Both the position numbers and the translations under genes were made by a program. Positions 2,198-50,669 of a stretch of 64,000 nt of DNA are shown in pieces; position 1 is the stretch's first letter, and every line of letters starts with the position of its first letter. The DNA is from Chitinophagales bacterium (GTDB lineage: Bacteria > Bacteroidota > Bacteroidia > Chitinophagales > Chitinophagaceae), in the NCBI GenBank assembly GCA_031539345.1, contig JAVKMO010000013.1:1276-65275 (forward strand), read 5' to 3'. Below the pieces are notes generated by a model. It was given only the letters and a program-made list of their open reading frames with translations, had not been told where the DNA came from and made no database searches.

Positions 2198-4108
2198 CTA
2201 ATAAATCCATCGCTTAAACGCTTCTAAGGCGGCATATTGTGTTAAACCTAAGCCTGCATAAACGTTAGCCGTATTTGCGTTTCGGTCTTCTGCACGTTGC
2301 CAAAATTCACGCGAATCATTACCCTGAAAAGGAACGATGTCTTTTTGTGATTGATGAATAAATATACCAAAACGTTTTTTCTTTACTTGCTCTGGACTCA
2401 TCGGCACAACCATTTCTATTTCTTCTATATTCCATTCTTGCCAAGCACCTTTATACATCCATACCCAGCAGTCTTTTACCCATGTTTTATTAGCAGCTTT
2501 TAAACGTCGCATTGCTTCAAAAATAATCTCTATACATACTTTGTGCGTGCCGTGCGGATCGGCTAAATCACCAGCACAAAAAATCTGGTGTGGTTGAACT
2601 TGGTCTAATAAATCCATCGTAATTTTTATATCCTCTTCGCCCATCGGTTTTTTTGCTATTGTGCCTGATTCATAAAAAGGCAAATTTTGAAAATGGATAT
2701 TATGATCTGGCAAACCGACATAACGACACGTCGCCCGCGCTTCGCAACGGCGTATTAAACCTTTTATTTGTCTAACAGCTTCTGTGTCTTTATCAAAAGG
2801 GCTTTGCTTCGTTTTGATAAAATTTCTCGCATCGCTATAAATTTTTGCAGAAGCACTTGCATTGAGTTCAAACAATTCATCAAACCCTACGGTAAAATCT
2901 AAAAAGCGTGTTACAAATTCGTCTGTAACGGCTATGTTTCCAGAAGTTTGATAAGCAATGTGAACATCATGCCCTTGTTCGTGTAAACGCATAAATGTTC
3001 CGCCCATACTGATAATGTCATCATCGGGATGTGGTGAAAAAATAATCACTTTTTTAGGAAAAGGTTTTTCGCGTTCTGGATGATTCGGCAAAGGCGCGTT
3101 TTTTCCACCAGGCCAACCAGTAATCGTATCACGTAAAGAATAATAAACTTCTAAATTGATTTTGTAGGCTTCACCATGCATTAATAATAATTCTCCTAAG
3201 GAGTGTTCAATATAATCATTAGACGTTAAACTTAAAATAGGTTTTTGCAATTTTTGAGCCAAATCAATAACCGCTTTTTTAACCAATTGCTTATCCCACT
3301 GACAAGCACCTGCCAACCAAGGCGTTTTTATGCGGGCTAATTCTTGTGCAGCTTGTAGGTCTATAAAATACTCACAGTTGGGGTGATTTTGTAATAACGA
3401 TGCTGGAATTTTTTCGGTCATATCGCCTTCTAATGCTTTTTGAATAATAGCAGCTTTGCTATCTCCCCAAGCCATCATAAGAATTGTTTTTGCTTGTAAA
3501 ATCGTCCGAATGCCCATTGTAATTGCCAAGCGAGGCATTTGTAATAAAGTGCCAAAATGGTTAGCATTGCTGATGCGCGTGCTATTTGCCAAATGCACTA
3601 AACGTGTTTTAGAATGAAGACTCGCACCAGGTTCGTTAAAACCAATATGTCCATTCGTACCAATACCTAATATTTGCAAATCAATTCCTCCAGCATCAAT
3701 TATTTTTTGTTCGTAAAGAGCCGTTTCTATCGCTATATTTTCTTCGCTTATTTGTCCATTGGGTATGTGTGTATTGTTGAGGTCAATATCAATATGTTTA
3801 AACAAATGCTCATTCATAAAAGAACGATAACTATTCACATGATGAGTGTCTATACCATAATATTCATCTAAGTTAAACGTTACAACATTTTTAAAACTTA
3901 AGCCTTCATGTTTATGCATATCAACCAAATGTTGATATACATATTTCACCGAAGAACCTGTGGCTAAGCCCAAAACCATTTTTTGTTTTTGATTTTGTTT
4001 ATTCAGCATGAACTCTTTTATTTTTTTTGCTATTAGCAAACTACCTTCTTGTTCGTTAGGAACGACATGGCATACATTTTTTTCTAAGGATTGAGAAAGA
4101 TTCATCAT
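2198..4108 (-). CDS. nagB: long-form glucosamine-6-phosphate deaminase (NagB domain fused to a LmbE/PIG-L-like domain)
   Basis: 636 aa. N-terminal NagB motifs GLATGSS and ILGIGTNGHIGFNEPG. C-terminal half carries the PIG-L/LmbE signature IIFSPHPDDDIISMGG. Confidence 0.9.
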   Translation of the reverse strand: MMNLSQSLEKNVCHVVPNEQEGSLLIAKKIKEFMLNKQNQKQKMVLGLATGSSVKYVYQHLVDMHKHEGLSFKNVVTFNLDEYYGIDTHHVNSYRSFMNEHLFKHIDIDLNNTHIPNGQISEENIAIETALYEQKIIDAGGIDLQILGIGTNGHIGFNEPGASLHSKTRLVHLANSTRISNANHFGTLLQMPRLAITMGIRTILQAKTILMMAWGDSKAAIIQKALEGDMTEKIPASLLQNHPNCEYFIDLQAAQELARIKTPWLAGACQWDKQLVKKAVIDLAQKLQKPILSLTSNDYIEHSLGELLLMHGEAYKINLEVYYSLRDTITGWPGGKNAPLPNHPEREKPFPKKVIIFSPHPDDDIISMGGTFMRLHEQGHDVHIAYQTSGNIAVTDEFVTRFLDFTVGFDELFELNASASAKIYSDARNFIKTKQSPFDKDTEAVRQIKGLIRRCEARATCRYVGLPDHNIHFQNLPFYESGTIAKKPMGEEDIKITMDLLDQVQPHQIFCAGDLADPHGTHKVCIEIIFEAMRRLKAANKTWVKDCWVWMYKGAWQEWNIEEIEMVVPMSPEQVKKKRFGIFIHQSQKDIVPFQGNDSREFWQRAEDRNANTANVYAGLGLTQYAALEAFKRWIY

Positions 4109-4197
4109 GTTTAATTTTTGGTTATTAATAGCGAGTTTTTGACAATGAATTTCAAATGACTACACTTTGATTTGTTCAGTCATTCGTCATTGAAAAT

Positions 4198-5382
4198 TTA
4201 TATAAAATGTTTTTCTAAGGCAACTATGCAAGCACCATAAATGCCAGAATGTTCATAGGTATTGGTAATCATAATTTCCGTTTCATCAGCAACCACATTT
4301 AAGCAATATTTATTAATGGCATTTTTTATAGGCCACAAAATATAATTTTTTGTTTGTGCTAACACGCCCCCTAAAATGATCATATCAGGGTTCAACATAT
4401 TGATTAAATTAGCGATAGACATTCCTAATTTATTTCCCATCGTTTCTACAATATTGATAATAACACTATCGTTGTTAAAGAGTGCTTTTATAATGTCTTC
4501 TACATGAAGAGGATGAATGTTTTCTACTTGCGAAGTTTTGCCTGTTGCAAGAGCTTCTTTTACTAAACGCAACAAAGCCTTGCCCGAAGCAACAGTTTCT
4601 AAACAACCACTTTTTCCGCAATGACACAAGATATTATTGTCTTCAAAAAATGTATGCCCTAATTCACCAGAGTAACCATTTTTCCCATAAAACACTTCGT
4701 CATTGATGATTAAATTCATCCCTAAACCATAATCTACGTGAATGTAAATAATGCTTTTATTGTGGTATCGTTTTTGTGTATAATATTCGCCTAATGCGAT
4801 CGCACGCGTGTCGTTATCAATGGTTGTCATAATGCCTAAAACAGTACTCATATGAACTGCAAAGCTCGAAGGCAAAAAATTAAAGTAATTGATATTTTCT
4901 CCTTTATTCGTATTCACTCTGCCGGGTAAAATAATACATACACCAGCAATTTGAATGCCTTGAAACGCAGGTAGTTTTATAAAATCTTGAATAATAGCAA
5001 CCACTTGATCAAGTGCTTCTATTGTGTTTTGTAATGAATATTCAAATTTTAATATTTCGCCAATCCATTGTTTTTGCAAATTGACAGCACCAATTAAAAT
5101 CCTATTTTGTTGAATTTCTACCCCAACAAAATGAACAGCTTCTTTGTTAAGAAAATAATTAACTGCTTTTCTGCCTACTGCAGATTCTGTTTTGCCACCT
5201 TTGATTAACCATTTTTCTTCGCACAAACTTTCGATTAAATTAGTTGCCGTTGGAATACTAATATTTAATATGCGAGTTGCGTTATAAATAGTCGTCTCGT
5301 GGTCGTATTTAATAAGGTGTTTTAATAATTGGTTTTTATAGCTACTTTGCTTTTGCTCTAAAACGCTTACACTTTCTAGCAT
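4198..5382 (-). CDS. ROK-family transcriptional regulator (NagC-like)
   Basis: 394 aa. N-terminal winged-HTH region (ATRILNISIPTATNLIESL). ROK sugar-kinase-like fold with zinc motif GHTFFEDNNILCHCGKSGCLE. Divergent from susC. Confidence 0.85.
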   Translation of the reverse strand: MLESVSVLEQKQSSYKNQLLKHLIKYDHETTIYNATRILNISIPTATNLIESLCEEKWLIKGGKTESAVGRKAVNYFLNKEAVHFVGVEIQQNRILIGAVNLQKQWIGEILKFEYSLQNTIEALDQVVAIIQDFIKLPAFQGIQIAGVCIILPGRVNTNKGENINYFNFLPSSFAVHMSTVLGIMTTIDNDTRAIALGEYYTQKRYHNKSIIYIHVDYGLGMNLIINDEVFYGKNGYSGELGHTFFEDNNILCHCGKSGCLETVASGKALLRLVKEALATGKTSQVENIHPLHVEDIIKALFNNDSVIINIVETMGNKLGMSIANLINMLNPDMIILGGVLAQTKNYILWPIKNAINKYCLNVVADETEIMITNTYEHSGIYGACIVALEKHFI

Positions 5383-5622: not shown

Positions 5623-8586
5623 ATGAAAACTATTGCGAACAAGCCTTTAACGAAAAGGTTATTAAAAAAAGCGGCGATGCTTTGGATACTAACATCCTTT
5701 GGGTATTTGTCGGCGGAAAGTAATGCGGGAGTATCAAAAAAAATGATCCCCACTTTTAATTTGCAAGAACAAATGGCGGCTTCGTTATCTTCGTCAAAAG
5801 ATAGCACTGCGGCACAAGTAAAAACAGAAGAAGAAGTTGTGGTAACAGCGTTGGGAATAGAAAAAAATAGAAAAGCATTAGGCTATTCTACTACTAGTGT
5901 TAAAGGAGATGAATTAACATTAGCTCGTGAGGTAAATTTAAGCTCAGTGTTAGTAGGAAAAGTGGCAGGGTTAAATGTAGACGCAAATGCAACAGGGGTT
6001 GGTGGATCAACAAAAATCACCATTAGAGGTAATAACTCTTTGACTCTTGGAAGTCAACCTTTGGTAGTTGTAAATGGTATACCTTTTGATAATACAAATC
6101 CTGGTGGAGCTGGCAAATGGGGAGGTATTGATTTAGGAGATGGAATGTCAAGTATCAATCCTGATGATATTGAAAGCGTAAACGTACTAAAAGGTGCTGC
6201 GGCTGCGGCACTATATGGTCAACGTGCTAGAAATGGAGCTTTGGTTATAACAACAAAAGCAGGCAAAAGAAATAGACCTGTTTCAGTAGATATTAATAGT
6301 AATACAACTTTTGATGCACCTATTGACTTTACTGATTATCAATTCGAATATGGTCAAGGTACTGCAGGACAAAAACCAACGACAAAAGCTGATGCGCTTG
6401 CTACTGGTGCTTCTGGTTGGGGGGCAAAATTAGACGGCTCACCAGTCATTATTTTTGATGGTTCTACTAAACCCTACAGTGCTCAAAAAAATAATATCAC
6501 TAATTTTTACAATGTTGGCTCAACACTTAGTAATAGTGTTTCTGCTTATGGAGGATCTCAAAATGCCGACTATTTCTTTTCTTATGGAAATGTAACCAAT
6601 AAAGGGATTTTACCAAATTCTACTTATGATAGAAATTCAGTAGCTTTAAATGTTAATCTAGATATAAACTCTAAAATAAGTAGTGGGGTAAATATCAATT
6701 ATGTGAATGAATCACGAGGAGGCATATCGCAGTTAAGTGACGCACCAAATAATGCAAATTTTGGTATTAGAACTCTTCCTGCAAATATTAGCCAAGAATA
6801 TTTAAAACCAGGGTACACAGGAGAAGGTTCTACGTTATTAGAATCTCAGTTTTCTGATAATCCTTACAGAACAAATCCATATTTTGTAATTAATAGAAAC
6901 AAAAACACTTCTCAAAAAAACAGGGTATTTGGAGCTGCATTTGTAAAATACCAAGTTTTGCCAGAATTTTCAGTAAAAGGTAGAGTAACTAATGATTTTT
7001 ATGCATTTGAAGCGTATAATATTTATCCAGCTGGCATTACGTTCAGACCTTTGGGGGCACTAGATAATTATAATAATACCAAATTCAGTGAAATTAATGC
7101 AGAGTTTACAGCAAATTATAAGAAAAAATTTGATAAAATCGGTGTTGATGTAATAGCTGGTGCTAATACTTTATACCGTAATTCTAATATATGGAATATA
7201 AATGCAGGTGACTTTAGTTTTTTTGATGTTTATAATCCTGCAACTGCAGCCACTCAACGTTCAAATTTAAGTCAGCCTAAAAGCAGAATAAACTCATTGT
7301 TTGCATCGGCAGATATTAATTATGATAATTTTTTGTTTTTAACAATTTCTAATCGAAGCGATTGGTCTTCAACACTTCCAAAAGAAAATAACTTTTTTAA
7401 TTACCCAGCTGTTTCATTAGGTTTTGACGCCGCAAAATTGATTAATTCATCAATGGTTAATTTGTTAAAATTGAGAGCTGCTTATGCAACTGTAGGAGGA
7501 GAAGCTGCACCTTTTCAAACACAATTAGCCTACTCATTAGGTGCTCCAGTTTCGGGAACATCTATAGGGGCTATACCATCTACAATTCCAAATATAAATT
7601 TAAAACCTTTAACTATTAGTGAAATGGAATTGGGTTTTGAAACTAAATTATTTAATAATAGATTAAATGTAGATTTTGCTTGGTATTCTAAAACAACTAA
7701 AGATGATATTGTTAATTCTACAGTATCTCAAACATCTGGTTATTCGGCTGCAGTGCAAAATATAGCTGAAATTAAAAATCAAGGTGTAGAATTATTAATT
7801 AATGGAGATGTTATTAATACAGGAAAATTTAAATGGAATACAGGTGTAAACTTGGCATATAATATCAATGAGGTTGTTGCTTTAGCTCCAGGTCAAACAA
7901 CATTAAGAGCTGGTGAGGCAAGAACTGGCAGAGCATTTGTAGAAAATGTAGTTGGCAAATCAATAAATCAAATAGCTGTTTTTGACTACAAAAAAGATAA
8001 AAACGGGAAATTGATTTTAAAGGATGATGGGACACCGCAAGCCATAGATACCGTAACTTATGCAGGTTCTGGTATTCATCCATTTACAGGTGCATGGAAT
8101 AATAGTGTATCTTATGCAGGTCTTACATTAAGTTTCTTAATAGATTGGAAATTTGGAGGATACATTTATTCTTCTACTGACTCAAGAGCCATAGCTGCAG
8201 GTTTTCATAAAAATACATTAACAAGCAGAGGGGGAGTAAACGTATTGGGTGTTGATGATAAAGGTAACGCAGTATCTAAACAAGTAAGAGCACAAGATTA
8301 TTATGATGCCATTGCAAATATTTCTAGCTTACAAGTATACGACGCAAGTTTTATTAAACTACGTTCAGTTACATTAAGTTATAATATACCATTTTCTGGT
8401 GCAGCTAAAAAGTATATTAAATCTGCAACGGTATCTTTTGTTGCAAGAAATTTATTTTACATTCTTAGAAAAACAGAAAATATTGAGCCGGAGGCTAATT
8501 ATAATACTTTGACAGTGCAAGGATTAGAAGGAGCTGGTTTACCAACTTCACGTTCTTTTGGATTTAATATTGCACTTAAGTTTTAA
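5623..8586 (+). CDS. susC: SusC/RagA-family TonB-linked outer membrane protein
   Basis: 987 aa. Plug motifs VVVTALGIEKNRKALGYSTTSV, ITIRGNNSL and NPDDIESVNVLKGAAAAALYG. C-terminal barrel ends FGFNIALKF. A SusD-like gene follows immediately. Confidence 0.9.
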   Translation: MKTIANKPLTKRLLKKAAMLWILTSFGYLSAESNAGVSKKMIPTFNLQEQMAASLSSSKDSTAAQVKTEEEVVVTALGIEKNRKALGYSTTSVKGDELTLAREVNLSSVLVGKVAGLNVDANATGVGGSTKITIRGNNSLTLGSQPLVVVNGIPFDNTNPGGAGKWGGIDLGDGMSSINPDDIESVNVLKGAAAAALYGQRARNGALVITTKAGKRNRPVSVDINSNTTFDAPIDFTDYQFEYGQGTAGQKPTTKADALATGASGWGAKLDGSPVIIFDGSTKPYSAQKNNITNFYNVGSTLSNSVSAYGGSQNADYFFSYGNVTNKGILPNSTYDRNSVALNVNLDINSKISSGVNINYVNESRGGISQLSDAPNNANFGIRTLPANISQEYLKPGYTGEGSTLLESQFSDNPYRTNPYFVINRNKNTSQKNRVFGAAFVKYQVLPEFSVKGRVTNDFYAFEAYNIYPAGITFRPLGALDNYNNTKFSEINAEFTANYKKKFDKIGVDVIAGANTLYRNSNIWNINAGDFSFFDVYNPATAATQRSNLSQPKSRINSLFASADINYDNFLFLTISNRSDWSSTLPKENNFFNYPAVSLGFDAAKLINSSMVNLLKLRAAYATVGGEAAPFQTQLAYSLGAPVSGTSIGAIPSTIPNINLKPLTISEMELGFETKLFNNRLNVDFAWYSKTTKDDIVNSTVSQTSGYSAAVQNIAEIKNQGVELLINGDVINTGKFKWNTGVNLAYNINEVVALAPGQTTLRAGEARTGRAFVENVVGKSINQIAVFDYKKDKNGKLILKDDGTPQAIDTVTYAGSGIHPFTGAWNNSVSYAGLTLSFLIDWKFGGYIYSSTDSRAIAAGFHKNTLTSRGGVNVLGVDDKGNAVSKQVRAQDYYDAIANISSLQVYDASFIKLRSVTLSYNIPFSGAAKKYIKSATVSFVARNLFYILRKTENIEPEANYNTLTVQGLEGAGLPTSRSFGFNIALKF

Positions 8587-44346: not shown

Positions 44347-44760
44347 ATGCCTTCCTATAAAATTGAAAATGGAAAAATTTGGGATATCGTTAGAAAGCAA
44401 TGGCTGTATGCTTTTCCCGAAGAAGTTTTACGCCAACAAGTAATAAATTATTTAATACACGAAAAAAAATATCCGCTTGCATTTATTGCCGTAGAAAAAG
44501 AATTTTTATTTCAGCAACGTAAAAAACGATTTGACATTGTTGTTTACAATAGCGATTTTACACCACACATTTTAGTTGAATGTAAACAAAAAAAAGTGCC
44601 ACTTGACCATCGTGTGAGTGATCAAATATTGCCTTATCTATTAGCACTTGCCCCGCAATATGTGGTCATTACAAATGGAGAAAGAATGCTCGTTTACAAA
44701 AGGAATAATGAAACGATAGAACAAATAGAAACAATTCCAACTTTTGATTTTATTCAGTAA
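44347..44760 (+). CDS. HsdR-N-terminal-like PD-(D/E)xK nuclease-fold protein
   Basis: 137 aa. Putative D...ExK core (RFDIVVY ... ILVECKQK). Size and pattern resemble the stand-alone type I restriction enzyme HsdR N-terminal domain proteins common in Bacteroidota. Confidence 0.6.
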   Translation: MPSYKIENGKIWDIVRKQWLYAFPEEVLRQQVINYLIHEKKYPLAFIAVEKEFLFQQRKKRFDIVVYNSDFTPHILVECKQKKVPLDHRVSDQILPYLLALAPQYVVITNGERMLVYKRNNETIEQIETIPTFDFIQ

Positions 44761-44781: not shown

Positions 44782-45843
44782 ATGCAAGAACAATTTTCAC
44801 AAGAAGACGAAGAAGAAGATTTGTCGCCCCAAGATGAACAAGGTTTATACGAACAATTTCGTGTTGTTGTTGATAAAGGACAGACACCGCTTCGGATTGA
44901 CAAATTTTTACAAAATAGAATTCTTGGTGCAACGCGAAACCGTCTGCAACAAGGCATTGAAAAAGGAATCGTCCTCGTCAATCAAAAAACAACAAAGGCA
45001 AATTATTTGGTAAAACCCTTTGACGATATCATTGTCTATGCACAAGGTACAGAACATGATGACGAAATTGTTCCTGAAAATATTCCTTTAGATATCTTAT
45101 TTGAAGATGATTATTTGCTCCTTGTCAACAAACCAGCAGGCATGGTTGTGCATCCCGGTTGCGGAAATTACAAAGGCACTATGCTCAATGCGGTTGCATA
45201 CCATTTTGCCAAAAACAATTTAGACACAACAACTTTGCCTCGTCTTGGTCTTGTGCATCGTATTGATAAAAACACAAGTGGCATTTTAGTGTTAGCTAAA
45301 ACTTTAGATGCCATTTATGGAATGATTAAACAATTTGCAGATCATAGCATCCATCGCCGATATATTGCTATGGCATGGGGAGATATGAAGCAAAATCAAG
45401 GGACAATAAAAGCACATATTGGAAGGCATCAACGCTTTAGAAAAAAATTTGACGCTTATCCCAATGGAGAATACGGTAAAGATGCGACAACACATTACAA
45501 AGTATTGCAACGATTCAATTATGTAACGCTTATAGAATGTCGATTAGAAACGGGACGCACGCACCAAATTCGTGTGCATATGCAACATATCGGACACAAC
45601 CTTTTTAATGACTATGAATATGGTGGTGATAAAATTTTGAAGGGAACTGTATATAAAAATTATCAGTCTTTTATTCAAAAATGCTTTGATGCCATGCCAA
45701 GACACGCTTTACACGCCAAAGAATTAGGCTTTATTCACCCTATTACAAAAGAAAAAATGTTTTTTGAGAGTGAATTGCCAAATGACTTTGAGCAGTTGAT
45801 TTCATTGTGGACAGCCTATACGTTAAGAAATAAAATGCTATAA
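44782..45843 (+). CDS. rluD: 23S rRNA pseudouridine synthase, RluA/RluD family
   Basis: 353 aa. S4-like N-terminal domain (RIDKFLQ). Catalytic motif LVHRIDKNTSGILVLAK. RTHQIRVHM. Confidence 0.9.
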   Translation: MQEQFSQEDEEEDLSPQDEQGLYEQFRVVVDKGQTPLRIDKFLQNRILGATRNRLQQGIEKGIVLVNQKTTKANYLVKPFDDIIVYAQGTEHDDEIVPENIPLDILFEDDYLLLVNKPAGMVVHPGCGNYKGTMLNAVAYHFAKNNLDTTTLPRLGLVHRIDKNTSGILVLAKTLDAIYGMIKQFADHSIHRRYIAMAWGDMKQNQGTIKAHIGRHQRFRKKFDAYPNGEYGKDATTHYKVLQRFNYVTLIECRLETGRTHQIRVHMQHIGHNLFNDYEYGGDKILKGTVYKNYQSFIQKCFDAMPRHALHAKELGFIHPITKEKMFFESELPNDFEQLISLWTAYTLRNKML

Positions 45844-45926
45844 AGAACACATCAATAATGGTTAATTGAGTACATCTGAACTGGCTTGAGGCTATGGCAA
45901 AGCAACTATCTATTTTATGACCACAA

Positions 45927-46061
45927 GGCTTCAACGGTTTGGGGCTTGGCGAAGTGGGGGATTTTGAAGCACTTACTTTCAATTTAGCACAAATGTACGT
46001 AAAAAGCACAAATGTTGAAGTTGGCACTGAAGCCCCAATTTCGCAAAACCGTTGTTAGCGG
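45927..46061. repeat. attC-like imperfect-hairpin repeat, copy A (most degenerate)
   Basis: Left arm GGCTTCAACGGTTTGGGGCTTGGCGAAGTGGGGG. Right arm GCCCCAATTTCGCAAAACCGTTGTTAGCGG. The centre carries four ~17-bp direct sub-repeats. Confidence 0.8.
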
Positions 46062-46071
46062 AAGTACCTTT

Positions 46072-46230
46072 TTAAACTAATTCTTTTTTCTTGGTTTTAG
46101 TCAATTTAGTAGTAGATTTTTTTGCTTTATAGTCAGCGATAAACTTACTTATTTCAGCTCTATCTTTGTCTGTCAAAGGTTCGCTTTGGATTAGAAAGTC
46201 AATGCCTTTAGGTTCTTTTATGTGTCCCAT
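46072..46230 (-). CDS. small ORF (52 aa), below the ORF-track cutoff, 4 nt downstream of the GNAT-like gene
   Basis: My translation: MGHIKEPKGIDFLIQSEPLTDKDRAEISKFIADYKAKKSTTKLTKTKKKELV. The ATG at 46230 is 4 nt after the upstream stop (46235). The stop lies 10 nt before repeat A. Lys-rich tail. Confidence 0.4.
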   Translation of the reverse strand: MGHIKEPKGIDFLIQSEPLTDKDRAEISKFIADYKAKKSTTKLTKTKKKELV

Positions 46231-46234
46231 TTTG

Positions 46235-46750
46235 TTAAGATTTAAAATATTTATCAGTCAAAATTTTTGCAGAATGCGTTGGAATTATCATTTTATGTCC
46301 ACCAAAATGATAAGCGTCCAAAGTTTCTTCATAATGTTTTATCAATCTTGTCTTTGCCGTAAATGACAAAAACCCTTCAAAACCAAATTGAAAAGAGAGT
46401 TTACAAGCATAAGCTACTAAATTTCCAGCAACACCTTCATAGAGTTTGTTTTTACCAATATTAAAAGGAGCGTTTTCGAGTAAATTCATAAAAATGTGGT
46501 TGCTTTCTCTTCGGATACTTATAATGTTAGGGTTTCCAACAATTGTCAATTTGTAAACTTCGTTTATTTCGTTGTCAAGCTCAGATTTCCAGTTGAAATT
46601 CCAACCATTCCTTTTTACTACTTGTTTACAGTCAGCAAAGGTAAATCTTGAAATTTCGGTTTGAAAACTATCTCCAGAAATAGTATTTTGGATAGAGTTA
46701 GTTAATTTATCCACTAAAAAATCGAGTTGTATTTCGCTTGTCATTTTCAC
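46235..46750 (-). CDS. GNAT-like acetyltransferase-fold protein (tentative)
   Basis: 171 aa. The C-terminal segment YEGVAGNLVAYACKLSFQFGFEGFLSF resembles the GNAT motif-A region. The assignment comes from pattern memory only. Confidence 0.5.
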   Translation of the reverse strand: MKMTSEIQLDFLVDKLTNSIQNTISGDSFQTEISRFTFADCKQVVKRNGWNFNWKSELDNEINEVYKLTIVGNPNIISIRRESNHIFMNLLENAPFNIGKNKLYEGVAGNLVAYACKLSFQFGFEGFLSFTAKTRLIKHYEETLDAYHFGGHKMIIPTHSAKILTDKYFKS

Positions 46751-46822
46751 AGGATAAATTTACAAAACAATTATCAGCCTTGCAAGTGTTAAGTTTCAGA
46801 TAGTAGTGCGGTAATGGTATTC

Positions 46823-46958
46823 CCGCTAACGGCCTGGGGCTTTGCGAAGGTGGGGAAATCGAAGCACAAATGTTCAATTTAGTACAAATGTTCATTAGAA
46901 TTCCAATGCTCAAATTTAGCACAAATGCCCCACTTTTGCAAAGCCCCTGTTAGGTGCA
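46823..46958. repeat. attC-like imperfect-hairpin repeat, copy B
   Basis: Left arm CCGCTAACGGCCTGGGGCTTTGCGAAGGTGGGG. Right arm CCCCACTTTTGCAAAGCCCCTGTTAGGTGCA. The arms pair with a 5-nt versus 1-nt internal loop. Confidence 0.85.
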
Positions 46959-47037
46959 GTTTTTTTTCATTTTCGCATTTATTTTTGCGTATTTGAATTA
47001 TTATTCTCATATTTGCAAAATAAAATGAATTCAAGTT

Positions 47038-47343
47038 ATGTCTGAATGGAATAATAAAGTCAAACGAATACTCAAATCAGAGTTAGTAAAACGTGGTTTG
47101 TCCACCGAAGATTTAACCACTTTGTTAAACGAAAACGGTTGTACAGAAACGAAGTCAAGCGTTGATAGTAAAATTAGTCGTGGTACTTTTAGTGCTTCCT
47201 TTTTTATGCAATGTCTGTATGTCATAGGTTGTACAAAAATTGAAATTGAAGAATATCGCTCTACTTTTATGATTTCAGAACCGTCTGTTTTGATGGTTGC
47301 TGAACCTAATGTTGAATATAAAACTGTGAAAGATGACAACTAA
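47038..47343 (+). CDS. small putative DNA-binding/regulatory protein (DUF6471-like) coupled to the methyltransferase
   Basis: 101 aa. WNNKVKRILKSELVKRGLSTEDL...SKISRGTFSASFFMQCLYVIG resembles, from memory, DUF6471 proteins often found next to methyltransferases. Its stop (47341-47343) overlaps the MTase ATG (47333). Confidence 0.55.
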   Translation: MSEWNNKVKRILKSELVKRGLSTEDLTTLLNENGCTETKSSVDSKISRGTFSASFFMQCLYVIGCTKIEIEEYRSTFMISEPSVLMVAEPNVEYKTVKDDN

Positions 47344-48703
47344 ATTAAAATTTATAGATTTATTCGCTGGTCTTGGTGGTATTCGTCTTGGTTTTGAGCA
47401 AGCCTGTCAAGATAGAGGAATTGAAACTGAATGTGTTTTAACTTCTGAAATTAAACCTTACGCAATACAAACACTAAAACATAATCATCATCACGAAAAT
47501 TTTGTAGGCGATATTTTTCAAGTTAAAAATGAAGATATTCCGCTATTTGATTTTTTATTTGGTGGTTTCCCTTGTCAGCCGTTTAGTGCAAGTGGAAAAC
47601 GAAATGGTTTTGCTGATACAAGAGGAACTTTGTTTTTTGAAATAGAAAGAATTATTAAATACCATCAACCAAAAGGATTTATCCTTGAAAATGTTGAAGG
47701 TTTGGTAAAACACGATTTAGAAAACAAATATGATGAAATTGGCAGAACACTAAAAACAATTTTAGATAAACTTGAAAATGAATTAAATTATCAAGTGTCT
47801 TGGAAAGTTTTGGATAGTATAAATTTTGGCGTTCCACAGTCAAGAAAAAGAGTTTTTATTGTCGGTACAAAAAATGAAAAAGTGTCATTAGATAATTTTG
47901 AGCCAACTTTTAAAGTTTTGAAAGATGTTTTAGAAAGTGGCAAACCAATAATGAAAACCGATTTCACTAAAAAATTACTTTCACATTTTACGGTTGAAGA
48001 ACTTTATGGAAAATCAATAAAGGACAAACGTGGTGGCGAAAACAATATTCATAGTTGGGATATTGGTGTAAAAGGTGAATGTTCAAAAGACCAAATAAAT
48101 TTGCTAAACAGGCTTTTTAAAGAACGCAGAAAAAAGCAATGGGCGAGTGAAATTGGTATTGATTGGATGGATGGTATGCCTTTAACTTTAAGTCAAATTC
48201 AGTCATTTTTTCCTGCCAAGAATTTGTTTGAAAATGTTGATGTAAAAGCACTTTTAGATGATTTGGTTGAAAAAGGTTATATAAAATTTGAACACCCAAA
48301 AAAAATAGTTTCTGAAAATACAGAGAATGGTGTAATTACTTCTCGTATATATGACGAAACAAAACCAAAAGGCTACAATATTGTAACTGGAAAATTGAGT
48401 TTTGAAATAAATAAAATTTTAAATCCTTTTGAAATTGCTCCAACTTTGGTTGCTACTGATATGGTTAAAATTGTTGTTCCCGATGGCAAAGGAATAAGAA
48501 AACTAACCATAAGAGAAGGTTTAAGAATTTTTGGTTATCCCGAAAATTACGAAATTCCTGTCAAAGAAAGTTTAGCGTTTGATTTATTAGGAAACACGGT
48601 TGTTGTTCCTGTTATCAAAGCCGTTGCAGAAAAAATTTTAGATGCTTTGGAAGTGTCGGAATACGAAATATTAGAAACAGAAAACGCAGGAATTAGAGTT
48701 TAA
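47333..48703 (+). CDS. dcm: DNA (cytosine-5)-methyltransferase, type II
   Basis: 456 aa with all the canonical m5C motifs: I FAGLGG, IV GGFPCQPFS, VI ENVEGL, VIII QSRKRVFIVG, IX REGLRIFGYP, X GNTVVVPV. Long variable (TRD) region between VIII and IX. Confidence 0.95.
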   Translation: MTTKLKFIDLFAGLGGIRLGFEQACQDRGIETECVLTSEIKPYAIQTLKHNHHHENFVGDIFQVKNEDIPLFDFLFGGFPCQPFSASGKRNGFADTRGTLFFEIERIIKYHQPKGFILENVEGLVKHDLENKYDEIGRTLKTILDKLENELNYQVSWKVLDSINFGVPQSRKRVFIVGTKNEKVSLDNFEPTFKVLKDVLESGKPIMKTDFTKKLLSHFTVEELYGKSIKDKRGGENNIHSWDIGVKGECSKDQINLLNRLFKERRKKQWASEIGIDWMDGMPLTLSQIQSFFPAKNLFENVDVKALLDDLVEKGYIKFEHPKKIVSENTENGVITSRIYDETKPKGYNIVTGKLSFEINKILNPFEIAPTLVATDMVKIVVPDGKGIRKLTIREGLRIFGYPENYEIPVKESLAFDLLGNTVVVPVIKAVAEKILDALEVSEYEILETENAGIRV

Positions 48704-49382
48704 TTCCTGTGTTTTCAAAATATTTTTTCTTTACGTTTTTCAACCAATTTTCGCTGTAACTTCCTGTACTGTGAGAATATTTTTCGAGCGTTTCAGAAAT
48801 AGCATTTAGAAAAGTGATTTTATCTGCAAATGGTTTGTTCTTTGGATTTTTAGCATACCATTTTATAGGTCTTAAATTATATGGTTGGCTGTTTTTGGTT
48901 TGCATATTTACAGGATTTGCTCCCGAAGTTCCTGCCATTTCCCAAACTTTCATAAGCCATAAATTGTCCACACTCAAAACAGAATCAACCATTTTGTAAC
49001 CGAAAATCAAATAATCTGCATCAAGTCTTTCAGGTTTGATAAGTAGAGATTTGTTGTAAGAGTCAAAATTTGCAATGTCAAAAGCTGGTGTAGCATTTGC
49101 ATTGAATGTTTTGATTTCTAAAAACCCACTTTTGTCGTCTTCGGCTAGTAAAAAGTCTGGAAATTCTTGTGTGTTTACTCTGGTTCTAAAATAAAAGTTC
49201 TTTTGTTTTAGCCATTCACCAAGCCATTCTTGTAATAAGTCGCCAATTGCGTCTTTACCGTTATATTTTGCAGAAATACCGCCAAGTATGATTTCAACGC
49301 TTCCGATTTGTTCTTTTATTTTAAATTCGTTTAACAACAAATCATAAATTTCATTCGCTGTAACCTTTTTCTTTTCTGCCAT
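48693..49382 (-). CDS. type II restriction endonuclease (PD-ExK fold), partner of the m5C methyltransferase
   Basis: 229 aa. Convergent with the MTase, 11-nt tail overlap. Candidate catalytic core EFPDFLL ... GFLEIKTF (PD...ExK). A similarity to the NgoBV/NlaIV family is only a recollection and is unverified. Confidence 0.65.
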   Translation of the reverse strand: MAEKKKVTANEIYDLLLNEFKIKEQIGSVEIILGGISAKYNGKDAIGDLLQEWLGEWLKQKNFYFRTRVNTQEFPDFLLAEDDKSGFLEIKTFNANATPAFDIANFDSYNKSLLIKPERLDADYLIFGYKMVDSVLSVDNLWLMKVWEMAGTSGANPVNMQTKNSQPYNLRPIKWYAKNPKNKPFADKITFLNAISETLEKYSHSTGSYSENWLKNVKKKYFENTGIKL

Positions 49383-49471
49383 TCTTCTGTCTTGATTATA
49401 TTTTAAAATTGTCGCAAATGTACAAATTCTTCGTTGATGTTCGTTGTCGGTTGTGTCGGTTTTCGTAGCCT

Positions 49472-49609
49472 TGCACCTAACGGTTTTGGGCTTGGCGAAG
49501 GTGGGGTTTAGAAAGTATCAATGTTCAAATTTAGTACAAAAGCTAATAGAAAGTACAAATGTTCTGCCTAGTACTAAAGCCCCACTTTTGCCAAACCCAT
49601 GTTGTGCGT
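49472..49609. repeat. attC-like imperfect-hairpin repeat, copy C
   Basis: Left arm TGCACCTAACGGTTTTGGGCTTGGCGAAGGTGGGG (ACCTAAC equals RYYYAAC). Right arm CCCCACTTTTGCCAAACCCATGTTGTGCGT. Confidence 0.85.
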
Positions 49610-49629
49610 TCGTTGTTTTTTCTTTCAAG

Positions 49630-50059
49630 TTATTGTTCTAACATTTTTTTCAGTCCGTCCATTACATAACCCCAATTTGTGTCTGAATGGTTATGAGTTT
49701 CTTGTGTTTTAAAACCTCCTTGAACTATTGTAAAAATTGTTCCGTTTCCGTCTGCCGTTAATTCGTATTTTATTTCTGAATAGTTTGCAGGAATATCTTC
49801 TGTTCCTGAAAAAGAACTCCAATAATTATAAAGTATAAATTTTTCGATTTCAATATCTATTATGTTTCCTTTGTCTTCGTATGATTTGCCTTCATAAATT
49901 CCTTTGTAAAGTATTGGACTTCCTATCTTCCATTCACTTATACATTCCGTTCCAAAGAAATATATTTTAATAAGTTCGGGATTTGTCAATGCTTCCCAAA
50001 CTTTTGCAGTTGAAGCGTTAATATTAAATTGACTTTTTTAATGTTAATTCTGTTGTCAT
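49630..50059 (-). pseudogene. SRPBCC / AHSA1-like protein, interrupted by a frameshift in an A6 run
   Basis: ATG at 50059 gives MTTELTLKKSI then a stop. The long ORF (track 49630..49989, TTG start) is in another frame. Upstream of its TTG it still encodes KSQFNINASTAKVWEAL, preceded by an in-frame TAA. Removing one base of the run at 50034-50039 restores a 142-aa SRPBCC-type protein. Confidence 0.65.
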
Positions 50060-50060
50060 T

Positions 50061-50444
50061 TTATTTTGTCTGTTTGTTTATAAAGTAAAGCATTGTTGAA
50101 GAAATAATACACATAACAGTTGCTCCAATGTAAAGTGAACTGTCTTGTTGCGATATTCCTACGAAAAAGTCGCCAATGTTCATTACTAAAAAGAATAAGT
50201 AAGCAAGTGTCAGCATTGGAATTGATTTTTTCAATGTAGCAAAAGCGAAAATAAAACCTACTGCAAATTGTCGTGTCGCCCACATTTGTGTCAAGTAGCA
50301 AACACCTTTTGCATTTAGGTCAACTGTTTTCAATGCAGATTCTGGCGAAAATATCAAAGTTGAACTTACAATAAGTCCAAGTAATGCAAAAAGTCCTGAT
50401 ATAATTAGTATCCATTTTGGTATTGATTTCAAATTTTCTGTCAT
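50061..50444 (-). CDS. small 4-TM membrane protein
   Basis: 127 aa, four hydrophobic helices. Its stop at 50061 abuts the ATG (50059) of the SRPBCC gene, which suggests an operon. Confidence 0.6.
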   Translation of the reverse strand: MTENLKSIPKWILIISGLFALLGLIVSSTLIFSPESALKTVDLNAKGVCYLTQMWATRQFAVGFIFAFATLKKSIPMLTLAYLFFLVMNIGDFFVGISQQDSSLYIGATVMCIISSTMLYFINKQTK

Positions 50445-50500
50445 AATTTATTTGTTTTGTTATTTTGTTTTTGTTGTCTGTCTATGCGGTTCGGTACAAT

Positions 50501-50617
50501 GACGCACAACACGTAAATATACGCAATAGTATATTTTTTTCATCTTAACAAAAATAATTTAAACCAACAATAATTTAATATTTTAGGACAAAAAATATTT
50601 ATTTTACGCATTGCGTC
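50501..50617. repeat. palindromic boundary element D (sequence unrelated to A-C)
   Basis: Left GACGCACAACACGTAAATAT pairs imperfectly with right ATATTTATTTTACGCATTGCGTC. Its left tip ACGCACAAC (50502-50510) is the exact reverse complement of the right tip of repeat C. Confidence 0.45.
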
Positions 50618-50669
50618 TTTTTGTATATTTTTTCAAAAGATAAAACAAATTCTGCGACAGTTATTATGC

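Follow-up and report, generated by a model that had tools for sequence, protein, structure and literature searches.

The locus at positions 45,927 to 50,617 of a 64-kb stretch of DNA from a Chitinophagales bacterium (contig JAVKMO010000013.1; the whole stretch of 64,000 nt is called the window here) raises the question of what three long and similar hairpin elements, A, B and C, have to do with the genes that they separate, between rluD and a DHODH-like gene. A reading made without database searches (the sequence-only reading) had taken them for attC-like sites of an integron-type gene-cassette array. Our analysis suggests, with a probability of roughly 0.8, that the locus is a small array of three mobile cassettes, which belong to a site-specific recombination system of an integron-like kind found widely in Bacteroidota. 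The integron reading stood in that the predicted system works like an integron; canonical membership did not, because the recombinase linked to such arrays elsewhere has no IntI insertion and scores below the TIGR02249 cutoff, and because the geometry of the site is not that of attC. The features of the array, numbered by window position, are as follows:

49472-49610, minus strand: element C, attC-like hairpin site of cassette 1 (model R1, 125.9 bits, E = 1.6e-28)
46821-46958, minus strand: element B, attC-like hairpin site of cassette 2 (model R1, 111.5 bits, E = 5.2e-25)
45926-46063, minus strand: element A, the last and most degenerate attC-like site (model R1, 99.8 bits, E = 3.6e-22)
49481-50509, minus strand: cassette 1, 1029 nt, with complementary tips TTGTGCGT and ACGCACAAC; includes element C
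46830-49480, minus strand: cassette 2, 2651 nt, with tips GTTAGGTGCA and TGCACCTAAC; includes element B
45935-46829, minus strand: cassette 3, 895 nt, with tips GTTAGCGG and CCGCTAAC; includes element A
50510-50625, minus strand: predicted attI-like platform site, with the crossover between 50510 and 50509

Model R1, a covariance model made from the wider element family, was run over the 64-kb window and found exactly three copies, all on the minus strand and all at this one locus; these are the same three elements that the sequence-only reading had placed here. The left-arm pattern matched the window at five places, namely the left arms of all three elements and two right arms, where shuffles gave an expectation of 0.00; no Rfam family matched the element in the window at gathering thresholds. 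As that reading had also claimed, the outermost bases of each copy pair with the next copy and not with their own opposite tip. The right tip of A is exactly complementary to the left tip of B over 8 nt (GTTAGCGG), the right tip of B to the left tip of C over 10 nt (GTTAGGTGCA), and the right tip of C to positions 50502-50510 over 9 nt (GTTGTGCGT), and comparison of the tips of A, B and C gave no own-tip match beyond the GTT(A)/(T)AAC core. The tip ACGCACAAC is present only once in the window. If a G|TT crossover on the minus strand is assumed, the cassettes come out at 1029, 2651 and 895 nt, as in the sequence-only reading, and the last bases of element C (49480-49472) are part of cassette 2. 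The stop codons of the last minus-strand open reading frames (ORFs) lie about 10 nt before element A and about 20 nt before element C, in agreement with the 10-20 nt proposed earlier. When folded as single-stranded DNA (ssDNA), element C reached z = -4.2 on the plus strand and -2.75 on the minus strand, and element A showed a weaker stem and a shifted alternative pairing; the 20-nt arms of element B are 90% complementary. The outer tip of element A (GTTGAAGCC, minus strand) adjoins the chromosomal flank of rluD, whose stop is at 45843.

To place these copies in a wider context, genomes were scanned with a degenerate conserved-arm pattern, one genome per species, and at least 120 genome loci (numbered with L) were obtained, nearly all of them from Bacteroidota. 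Among the matches listed, the element is found in Flavobacteriales, Chitinophagales, Saprospiraceae, Cytophagales, Sphingobacteriia and Bacteroidales, with cultured strains in the genera Flavobacterium, Algoriphagus, Pedobacter and Amniculibacterium; carriers in culture include F. degerlachei DSM 15718, Algoriphagus faecimaris DSM 23095 and Pedobacter puniceum, and in the cultured Flavobacterium silvisoli RD-2-33 a recombinase, encoded at L125 262-2040, occurs together with an array. In the sense of the cassette ORFs, the family consensus is RYYYAAC-A-NNNGTTTGGCAAAAGTGGCGG-(70-90 nt)-CCGCCACCTTCGCCAAGCNNN-AAACC-GTTRRRY, a layout of about 138 nt with a 23-bp conserved stem and asymmetric spacers of 1 nt (A) and 5 nt (AAACC). 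The AAC and GTT of the cores are nearly invariant in the family alignment, and the partner arm lies at a fixed distance of about 91 nt in about 90 of 122 arm matches. A non-redundant alignment of 44 sequences was used for the hairpin statistics: 96.2% of the stem cells are paired, eight pairs show compensatory double changes, and the covariation score is 0.167, compared with 0.054 for shuffles (0/500 reach 0.167) and at most 0.014 for slid partners. Since pairing is kept by compensatory changes and covariation lies above that of shuffles, these alignments indicate that the hairpin is under selection.

The two strands of the hairpin are not equivalent. Two A.C mismatches are fixed in the stem of the ORF-sense strand, where the opposite strand reads G.T wobbles, and the strand opposite the ORFs folds slightly better as ssDNA in 30 of the 44 elements (p = 0.004). 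By analogy with integrons, the substrate may be a folded single strand, slightly favouring the strand opposite the ORFs. The interior of the element is conserved rather than variable, consisting of one or two units of about 37 nt, and may be bound by an accessory factor or by the N-terminal domain of the recombinase. The hairpin loop is conserved across orders and contains repeated TGTRST / ACATTTGTGG motifs (e.g. window 49510-49575 and 46860-46925); short variants of 110-112 nt, missing one unit of about 37 nt, occur in L084, L093, L128 and L040. Rfam at gathering thresholds gave no family for the element in 13 related loci, and nearby only group II intron and DUF805 motifs. One such group II intron (RF02001, 122 bits) lies in L049 (CP058703.1) at 6224-6395 on the plus strand, 105 nt from an element at 5982-6119 on the minus strand and in opposite orientation to it, which recalls the group IIC-attC introns associated with integrons.

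Elements of the same family were also seen outside of the genome set. Fifty-one contigs classed as viral in IMG/VR (L221-L271) carry the element, with up to 6 copies per locus, and the viral-classed contig L222 carries both the element and a recombinase of the array-linked family. Contigs binned as the archaeon Nitrosotalea (L040) and as Acidobacteriota, Klebsiella, Methylophilus and Limnohabitans (L038, L097, L131 and L133) carry Bacteroidota-type elements, and L040 (JAHEYD010000008.1, labelled Nitrosotalea sp.) has seven of them between 971 and 4118. These odd host labels reflect either mis-binning or real transfer, and the contigs bear on claims of integrons in Archaea that are based on metagenome-assembled genomes (MAGs).

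A selected hairpin behind a gene need not be a recombination site. The elements could primarily act in RNA, serving accessory genes at their 3' end as terminators, stabilisers or processing sites, and could have spread like miniature inverted-repeat transposable elements (MITEs) or repetitive extragenic palindromic (REP) sequences. Their position 10-20 nt after stop codons, co-oriented with the ORFs, would fit such a role, the conserved A.C mismatches would give G.U pairs in an antisense transcript, and covariation cannot separate DNA from RNA. The arrangement of the elements in other genomes makes this very improbable. In all 69 of the 69 multi-element loci the elements lie on one strand, and none in mixed orientation or inside genes was found among the loci examined; the densest array (L150) has a recombinase and 15 elements within 10 kb. 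The family is thus arrayed and not scattered singly. Among adjacent pairs in other genomes, 46/77 show 9-10 nt of exact complementarity between the right tip and the next left tip, compared with 8/159 own-tip pairs and 1.8% of random pairs, and the tip rule of the window is therefore a property of the family. An RNA signal or a MITE repeat would not yield tips complementary to the neighbouring copy, has no matching Rfam family, and would leave unexplained both the duplicated units bounded exactly in AACC-GTT and the fixed junction beside a recombinase gene that are described below. A dispersed REP/MITE repeat was rejected for the same co-orientation and neighbour-specific tips, together with the clustering of all three window copies at one locus. 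RNA roles are known for attC sites, and the elements could have an additional one beside recombination.

The reading as recombination sites gains in detail from the tips themselves. Positions 1-9 are paired, positions 12-15 are paired again in 57-70%, and beyond 15 only background is seen; at position 11 the cassette-start side has an almost invariant A, which faces C in 61% and forms a Watson-Crick pair in only 4%. The boundaries of the mobile unit can be read from one large array in CP058707.1 (3.584-3.608 Mb), to which two 8-kb segments (L080 and L107) belong. A 3.4-kb cassette is present there twice, with 99.5% identity, and the two copies have different neighbours on either side. The identical stretch starts within the AACCGTT of the upstream element, before which the stems differ, extends over the cassette and all of the downstream element, and ends at the downstream ...AAACCGTTG; therefore, the mobile unit is a cassette together with its 3' element. 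This sharing had been considered as shuffling between two genomes, which was rejected as both segments come from one chromosome and the case is an intra-array duplication. Judged from these boundaries, the exchange point is within the conserved AACC-GTT and is consistent with G|TT.

Which enzyme could act on these sites was addressed by an ORF screen seeded with approximate sequences of IntI1 and XerD, the matches being confirmed by NCBIfam, Pfam and PDB searches. Tyrosine recombinase genes were found at 9 of the 120 genome loci examined. At eight of the nine, the first element follows the recombinase gene downstream at a distance of 0.7-3.2 kb and in the same orientation, and there are no elements upstream of the gene. 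Other genomes thus show such arrays in physical linkage, and in a fixed geometry, with a tyrosine recombinase of the Xer/IntI group, the kind of enzyme that the integron reading called for, and this recombinase is most likely the enzyme of the system. The array-linked proteins contain Phage_int_SAM_4 and Phage_integrase domains (Pfam), preceded by an N-terminal extension of about 90 aa without a Pfam match. They score 172-222 bits on TIGR02249, matched in two stretches, where the cutoff is 265, and about the cutoff on NF040815 (XerA / integron integrase). In the alignment to VchIntIA (2a3v), 20 residues stand in place of chain residues 181-242 (62 in IntI), which means that the IntI-specific insertion is missing. 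Among solved structures, archaeal XerA proteins (4a8e/5hxy, E ~1e-40) are the best relatives, and the recombinase is as close to XerA as to IntI.

A metagenome scan with a query alignment of seven recombinases gave at least 593 relatives, from which 80 loci were kept. These contigs typically reach far upstream of the gene and break off within 1 kb on its downstream side. Every downstream element is co-oriented with the recombinase gene, and elements were found in 8/10 of the loci that reach 50% identity and have 1.4 kb or more of sequence downstream. In L152 (8042-19138) a recombinase gene of the family stands within an array and is flanked on either side by elements in its own orientation, which looks like a nested platform or like a recombinase gene that is itself carried in the manner of a cassette. 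L053 has a second, shorter tyrosine recombinase type (298 aa) antisense inside cassettes, beside an IS91-type Y2 transposase (3460-4353 and 6992-7336, both on the minus strand); this is a different element landing in the array.

The likeness of the linked enzyme to XerA, and its lack of the insertion that reads extrahelical bases, would also fit another explanation, in which the elements are duplex binding sites for host Xer-type recombinases and the cassettes move like Acinetobacter pdif modules, without a folded hairpin. We regard this as improbable. The modules of pdif are flanked by short 28-bp sites in alternating orientation, whereas the elements are 138 nt long and co-oriented in 69/69 loci, and their arms, about 90 nt apart, covary with pairing kept. 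The ends of the cassettes are complementary over about 15 nt, which is needed by the R-box of a hairpin and not by a duplex site. In addition, the recombinase is not a housekeeping Xer, as it has a fixed position beside the arrays.

We next consider where cassettes would enter. In recombinase-linked arrays, the start of the first cassette was located via the left tip of the first element, and a junction was found in 18/22 platforms, mostly 94-113 nt after the recombinase stop codon. Its motif, ..GCG-TATAW..RG|TT, is preceded by an inverted repeat whose sequence varies among platforms with pairing kept. The window has the same arrangement on the minus strand: an inverted repeat, AAAAAGACGCAAT (50622-50610) ... 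ATTGCGTATATTT (50527-50515), is followed by TATATTTACGTG|TT. The junction TTGCGTATATTTACGTG|TT is equal in layout to those of the recombinase-linked platforms, and its nearest match is the Flavobacterium silvisoli site GATATTTACTAG|TT. The DHODH-like gene stands in the place of the recombinase gene, 159 nt from the junction. From this layout, 50510-50625 is predicted to function as an attI-like insertion site and not just as a boundary. L150 and L151 have a common platform and different first cassettes.

The same kind of difference was found at the window locus by exact-protein lookups of rluD and the DHODH-like gene; all the flank contigs are from one sample series (SRR258314xx-5xx and MAGs GCA_0315xxxxx). 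L015 and L017 have the DHODH-like gene and the junction in common with the window, then a different first cassette. The common sequence ends at ...TATTTACGTG, after which the window reads TTGTGCGT. After the junction, the order in L017 is a 138-nt G-rich hairpin, G|TTGTGCGT, an EcoRII-type endonuclease and methylase, ACGCACAAC and an element, the last of which is a fourth family member with compensatory stem changes. Many flank contigs stop either 70-160 nt beyond rluD or exactly 95 nt beyond the stop codon of the DHODH-like gene; breaks at both borders of the array are the pattern expected where strains differ. The MAG bin GCA_031538245.1 holds both variants of the locus (L003 and L017). Two first cassettes at one junction, even within one MAG bin, imply recent turnover among strains at the platform. 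It had been expected that relatives would differ in the content or order of the locus, and this was borne out for the first cassette at the platform junction, whereas the cassettes of the window keep a constant order.

Further peculiarities of these variants were noted. The 138-nt G-rich hairpin stands directly at the platform junction (L017 1985-2122, L015 5063-5200), its core has GAT...ATC on both sides instead of GTT...AAC, a compensatory change, and it contains two small CCCTTCGGG-loop hairpins; it appears to be a putative 'empty cassette'. In the loop of the attI-like repeat, a stretch of about 30 nt differs between variants with identical flanks (window 50575-50588, L017 1906-1935), and it is at this place, 95 nt beyond the stop codon of the DHODH-like gene, that the Logan contigs break. 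L017 also has, farther downstream than the EcoRII-type cassette, an IS5-like DDE transposase fragment (4561-4953, minus strand), which is preceded by a degenerate element remnant (..TTTGCAAAAGCC..GTTAGGTGC).

Taken as a mechanism, each cassette consists of genes followed by an imperfect hairpin site of about 138 nt at its 3' end, which in cassette-ORF sense reads RYYYAAC-A-[23-bp conserved stem]-[70-90 nt interior]-[stem]-AAACC-GTTRRRY. Cassettes would be cut and joined within AACC-G|TT, so that the first bases of a cassette complement the bases just before its own hairpin. New cassettes would enter at the fixed platform ...TATATTTACGTG|TT (window 50510|50509), 159 nt downstream of the DHODH-like gene. 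The presumed catalyst is a Xer/IntI-related tyrosine recombinase, encoded in other genomes about 100 nt upstream of a like junction and co-oriented with the cassettes.

Several observations weigh against an array that is mobile in this way. No tyrosine recombinase was found in the 64-kb window by jackhmmer over all ORFs of at least 100 aa, confirming that none is visible there; the enzyme would therefore have to be supplied in trans by another part of the genome, or the array would at present be frozen like a cluster of attC sites without an integron integrase (CALIN). The three window cassettes, traced by exact-protein lookups, have the same order wherever they were found in the one sample series, and activity at this locus is accordingly seen only at the platform-proximal end. 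The folding advantage of one strand is small (-20.4 and -19.6 kcal/mol). Downstream of the recombinase relatives L154, L158, L171 and L181, which have long downstream sequence, no elements were detectable. In canonical integrons the IntI insertion contacts extrahelical bases, and without it hairpin recognition, if any, must work differently here.

The first two of these observations could mean that the array is an inert relic, built by an integron-like mechanism whose recombinase has since been lost, so that the elements are fossil boundaries. The degenerate state of element A points the same way, as does the finding that 111 of the 120 element-bearing loci examined have no recombinase within 8 kb. 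We take a relic to be a serious but unlikely explanation, as it does not account for two different first cassettes at one junction in one sample set, and since elements B and C are intact, with scores as high as those of the elements in recombinase-linked arrays. For the mobile array that we favour, the source genome would, by analogy with integrons, still encode the enzyme.

The genes carried by the array, with window positions, are as follows:

50061-50444, minus strand, co-oriented with the element: 127-aa membrane protein, cassette 1 (weak DUF4267, Pfam)
49630-49989, minus strand, co-oriented with the element: 119-aa AHSA1/SRPBCC protein, cassette 1 (Pfam AHSA1, 1.6e-14)
48693-49382, minus strand: NgoBV-like restriction endonuclease, cassette 2 (Pfam RE_NgoBV, 2.1e-48)
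47333-48703, plus strand: C5 cytosine methylase, cassette 2 (Pfam DNA_methylase, 6.8e-82)
47038-47343, plus strand: DUF6471 protein, cassette 2 (Pfam DUF6471, 2.3e-24)
46235-46750, minus strand: 169/171-aa ORF, cassette 3 (without a Pfam family)
46072-46230, minus strand: 52-aa ORF, cassette 3 (without a Pfam family)

By these Pfam matches, cassette 2 is a type II restriction-modification (R-M) system, with the DUF6471 protein possibly as its controller, and both the R-M and the SRPBCC cargo that had been proposed are supported. The ORFs of cassette 3 have no Pfam family above threshold. The 171-aa ORF had been called GNAT-like, which we rejected, as its sole Pfam match is a weak DUF899 below threshold (E = 0.0095). 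Family-wide, the longest ORF reads toward its own element in 96/114 cassettes, with a median spacing of 1.2 kb, and 70 Pfam families were found among 109 cassette proteins. This cargo is rich in R-M and defence genes and includes Dcm, N6/N4 methylases, GmrSD, Eco57I, AbiEii-like ATPase, proteins sorted by the type IX secretion system (T9SS) and AHSA1. DUF805 and DUF805b cis-regulatory RNA motifs lie within cassettes (L027 5366-5433; L049 2824-2856), so some cassettes would bring their own regulatory leader. Outside the array, just upstream of rluD, the window encodes a 137-aa HSDR_N_2 protein (type I restriction enzyme R N-terminal-like; 44347-44760, plus strand).

Integrons serve as the textbook case of modular gene capture in bacteria. 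We lean, with only slightly better than even confidence, towards the broader view that Bacteroidota own a phylum-wide integron lineage, in which a Xer/IntI-like recombinase lacks the domain thought essential for recognition of folded attC sites, and in which a 138-nt hairpin marks the recombining strand by fixed mismatches instead of extrahelical bases; this lineage would have been overlooked by current integron-finding tools and would reach phage-like contigs and contigs binned as other phyla or Archaea. If true, a phylum of major importance both in the environment and in association with hosts would possess a cassette pool, rich in R-M and defence genes, that has gone unrecognised, and integron-detection tools would have to be extended by a second site model and a second integrase profile. 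The defining IntI insertion would then not be required for cassette-type recombination, which bears on the evolution of integrons from Xer recombinases. The question is directly testable, as cultured strains carry the elements, including Flavobacterium silvisoli RD-2-33 with both recombinase and array.

Finally, we compared the array with known systems. In logic the system matches integrons; no description of it was found in Rfam or in the literature searched. The literature search, which was not exhaustive, covered Bacteroidota integrons and attC, integron-like elements of Flavobacteria and the arm sequences, and for the arm sequences gave only chance matches in unrelated papers. The IntegronFinder 2.0 survey lists for Bacteroidetes only In0 elements and one Salinibacter integron (PMC9024848), a near-absence which suggests that the elements are not detected by the attC model, and Bacteroidota are among the clades previously found without integrons (2024 preprint 10.1101/2024.07.02.601686). 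A classification of tyrosine recombinases describes the insertion as 'not fully conserved' in its integron-like subgroup (PMC8138268). CALINs are defined as at least two clustered attC sites without an integron integrase nearby, by the IntegronFinder attC model (PMC4889954; Neron et al. 2022, PMC9024848). The window resembles them in having three attC-like sites (by model R1) within 3.7 kb and no recombinase in 64 kb, their status as attC depending on the IntegronFinder model, and differs from them, which have no attI, in keeping an attI-like junction. IntI also inserts cassettes at genomic GTT sites, called attG (bioRxiv 10.1101/2022.09.11.507474). Such insertion would explain cassette arrays in ordinary intergenic regions away from an integrase, but the window junction is more than a bare GTT, with the full inverted-repeat and TATAW..RG|TT layout.

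The closest solved structures and profiles of the array-linked recombinase are those of the XerA/XerC/XerD resolvases. In contrast to Xer/pdif systems with their short duplex dif sites, the gene is linked to arrays and the sites are 138-nt hairpins, all co-oriented; the elements do not show the 28-bp duplex sites in alternating orientation of the pdif modules. The reverse ('inverted') integrons of Treponema/Spirochaetes have an integrase transcribed in the direction of the cassettes, with a bona fide IntI carrying the extra domain and canonical attC sites. The arrays described here share that gene direction, but their recombinase lacks the extra IntI domain and their sites are not canonical attC.

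Compared with integrons in general, the array-linked recombinase is without the IntI-specific insertion and below the TIGR02249 cutoff (172-222 against 265 bits), has an extra N-terminal domain of about 90 aa, and is encoded upstream of and co-oriented with the cassettes, not divergently; the candidate attI is correspondingly downstream of a co-oriented recombinase gene rather than between a divergent intI and the cassettes. Of the canonical attC fold (R box, unpaired spacer, L box with extrahelical bases and variable terminal structure), only the R-box pairing and the hairpin were found. The spacers are asymmetric (1 nt and 5 nt), a 23-bp stem with two fixed A.C mismatches replaces the extrahelical bases of the L box, the R box is extended to about 15 bp with a fixed mismatched A at position 11, and the interior is conserved and repeat-containing in place of a variable terminal structure. 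The canonical cassette boundary, with RYYYAAC / GTTRRRY cores and G|TT exchange, is present in the window tips and in the family, and the element length is within the attC range (the VCR attC sites of the Vibrio cholerae superintegron are about 125 nt). As in sedentary chromosomal integrons, the cassettes are co-oriented and mostly promoterless, with an imperfect palindromic site at each 3' end, AAC...GTT cores, a G|TT exchange and first bases that complement their own site. Like those integrons, the arrays also have a candidate insertion site of their own, the predicted platform beside a tyrosine recombinase gene, contain duplicated cassettes and carry diverse accessory and defence cargo including R-M systems.

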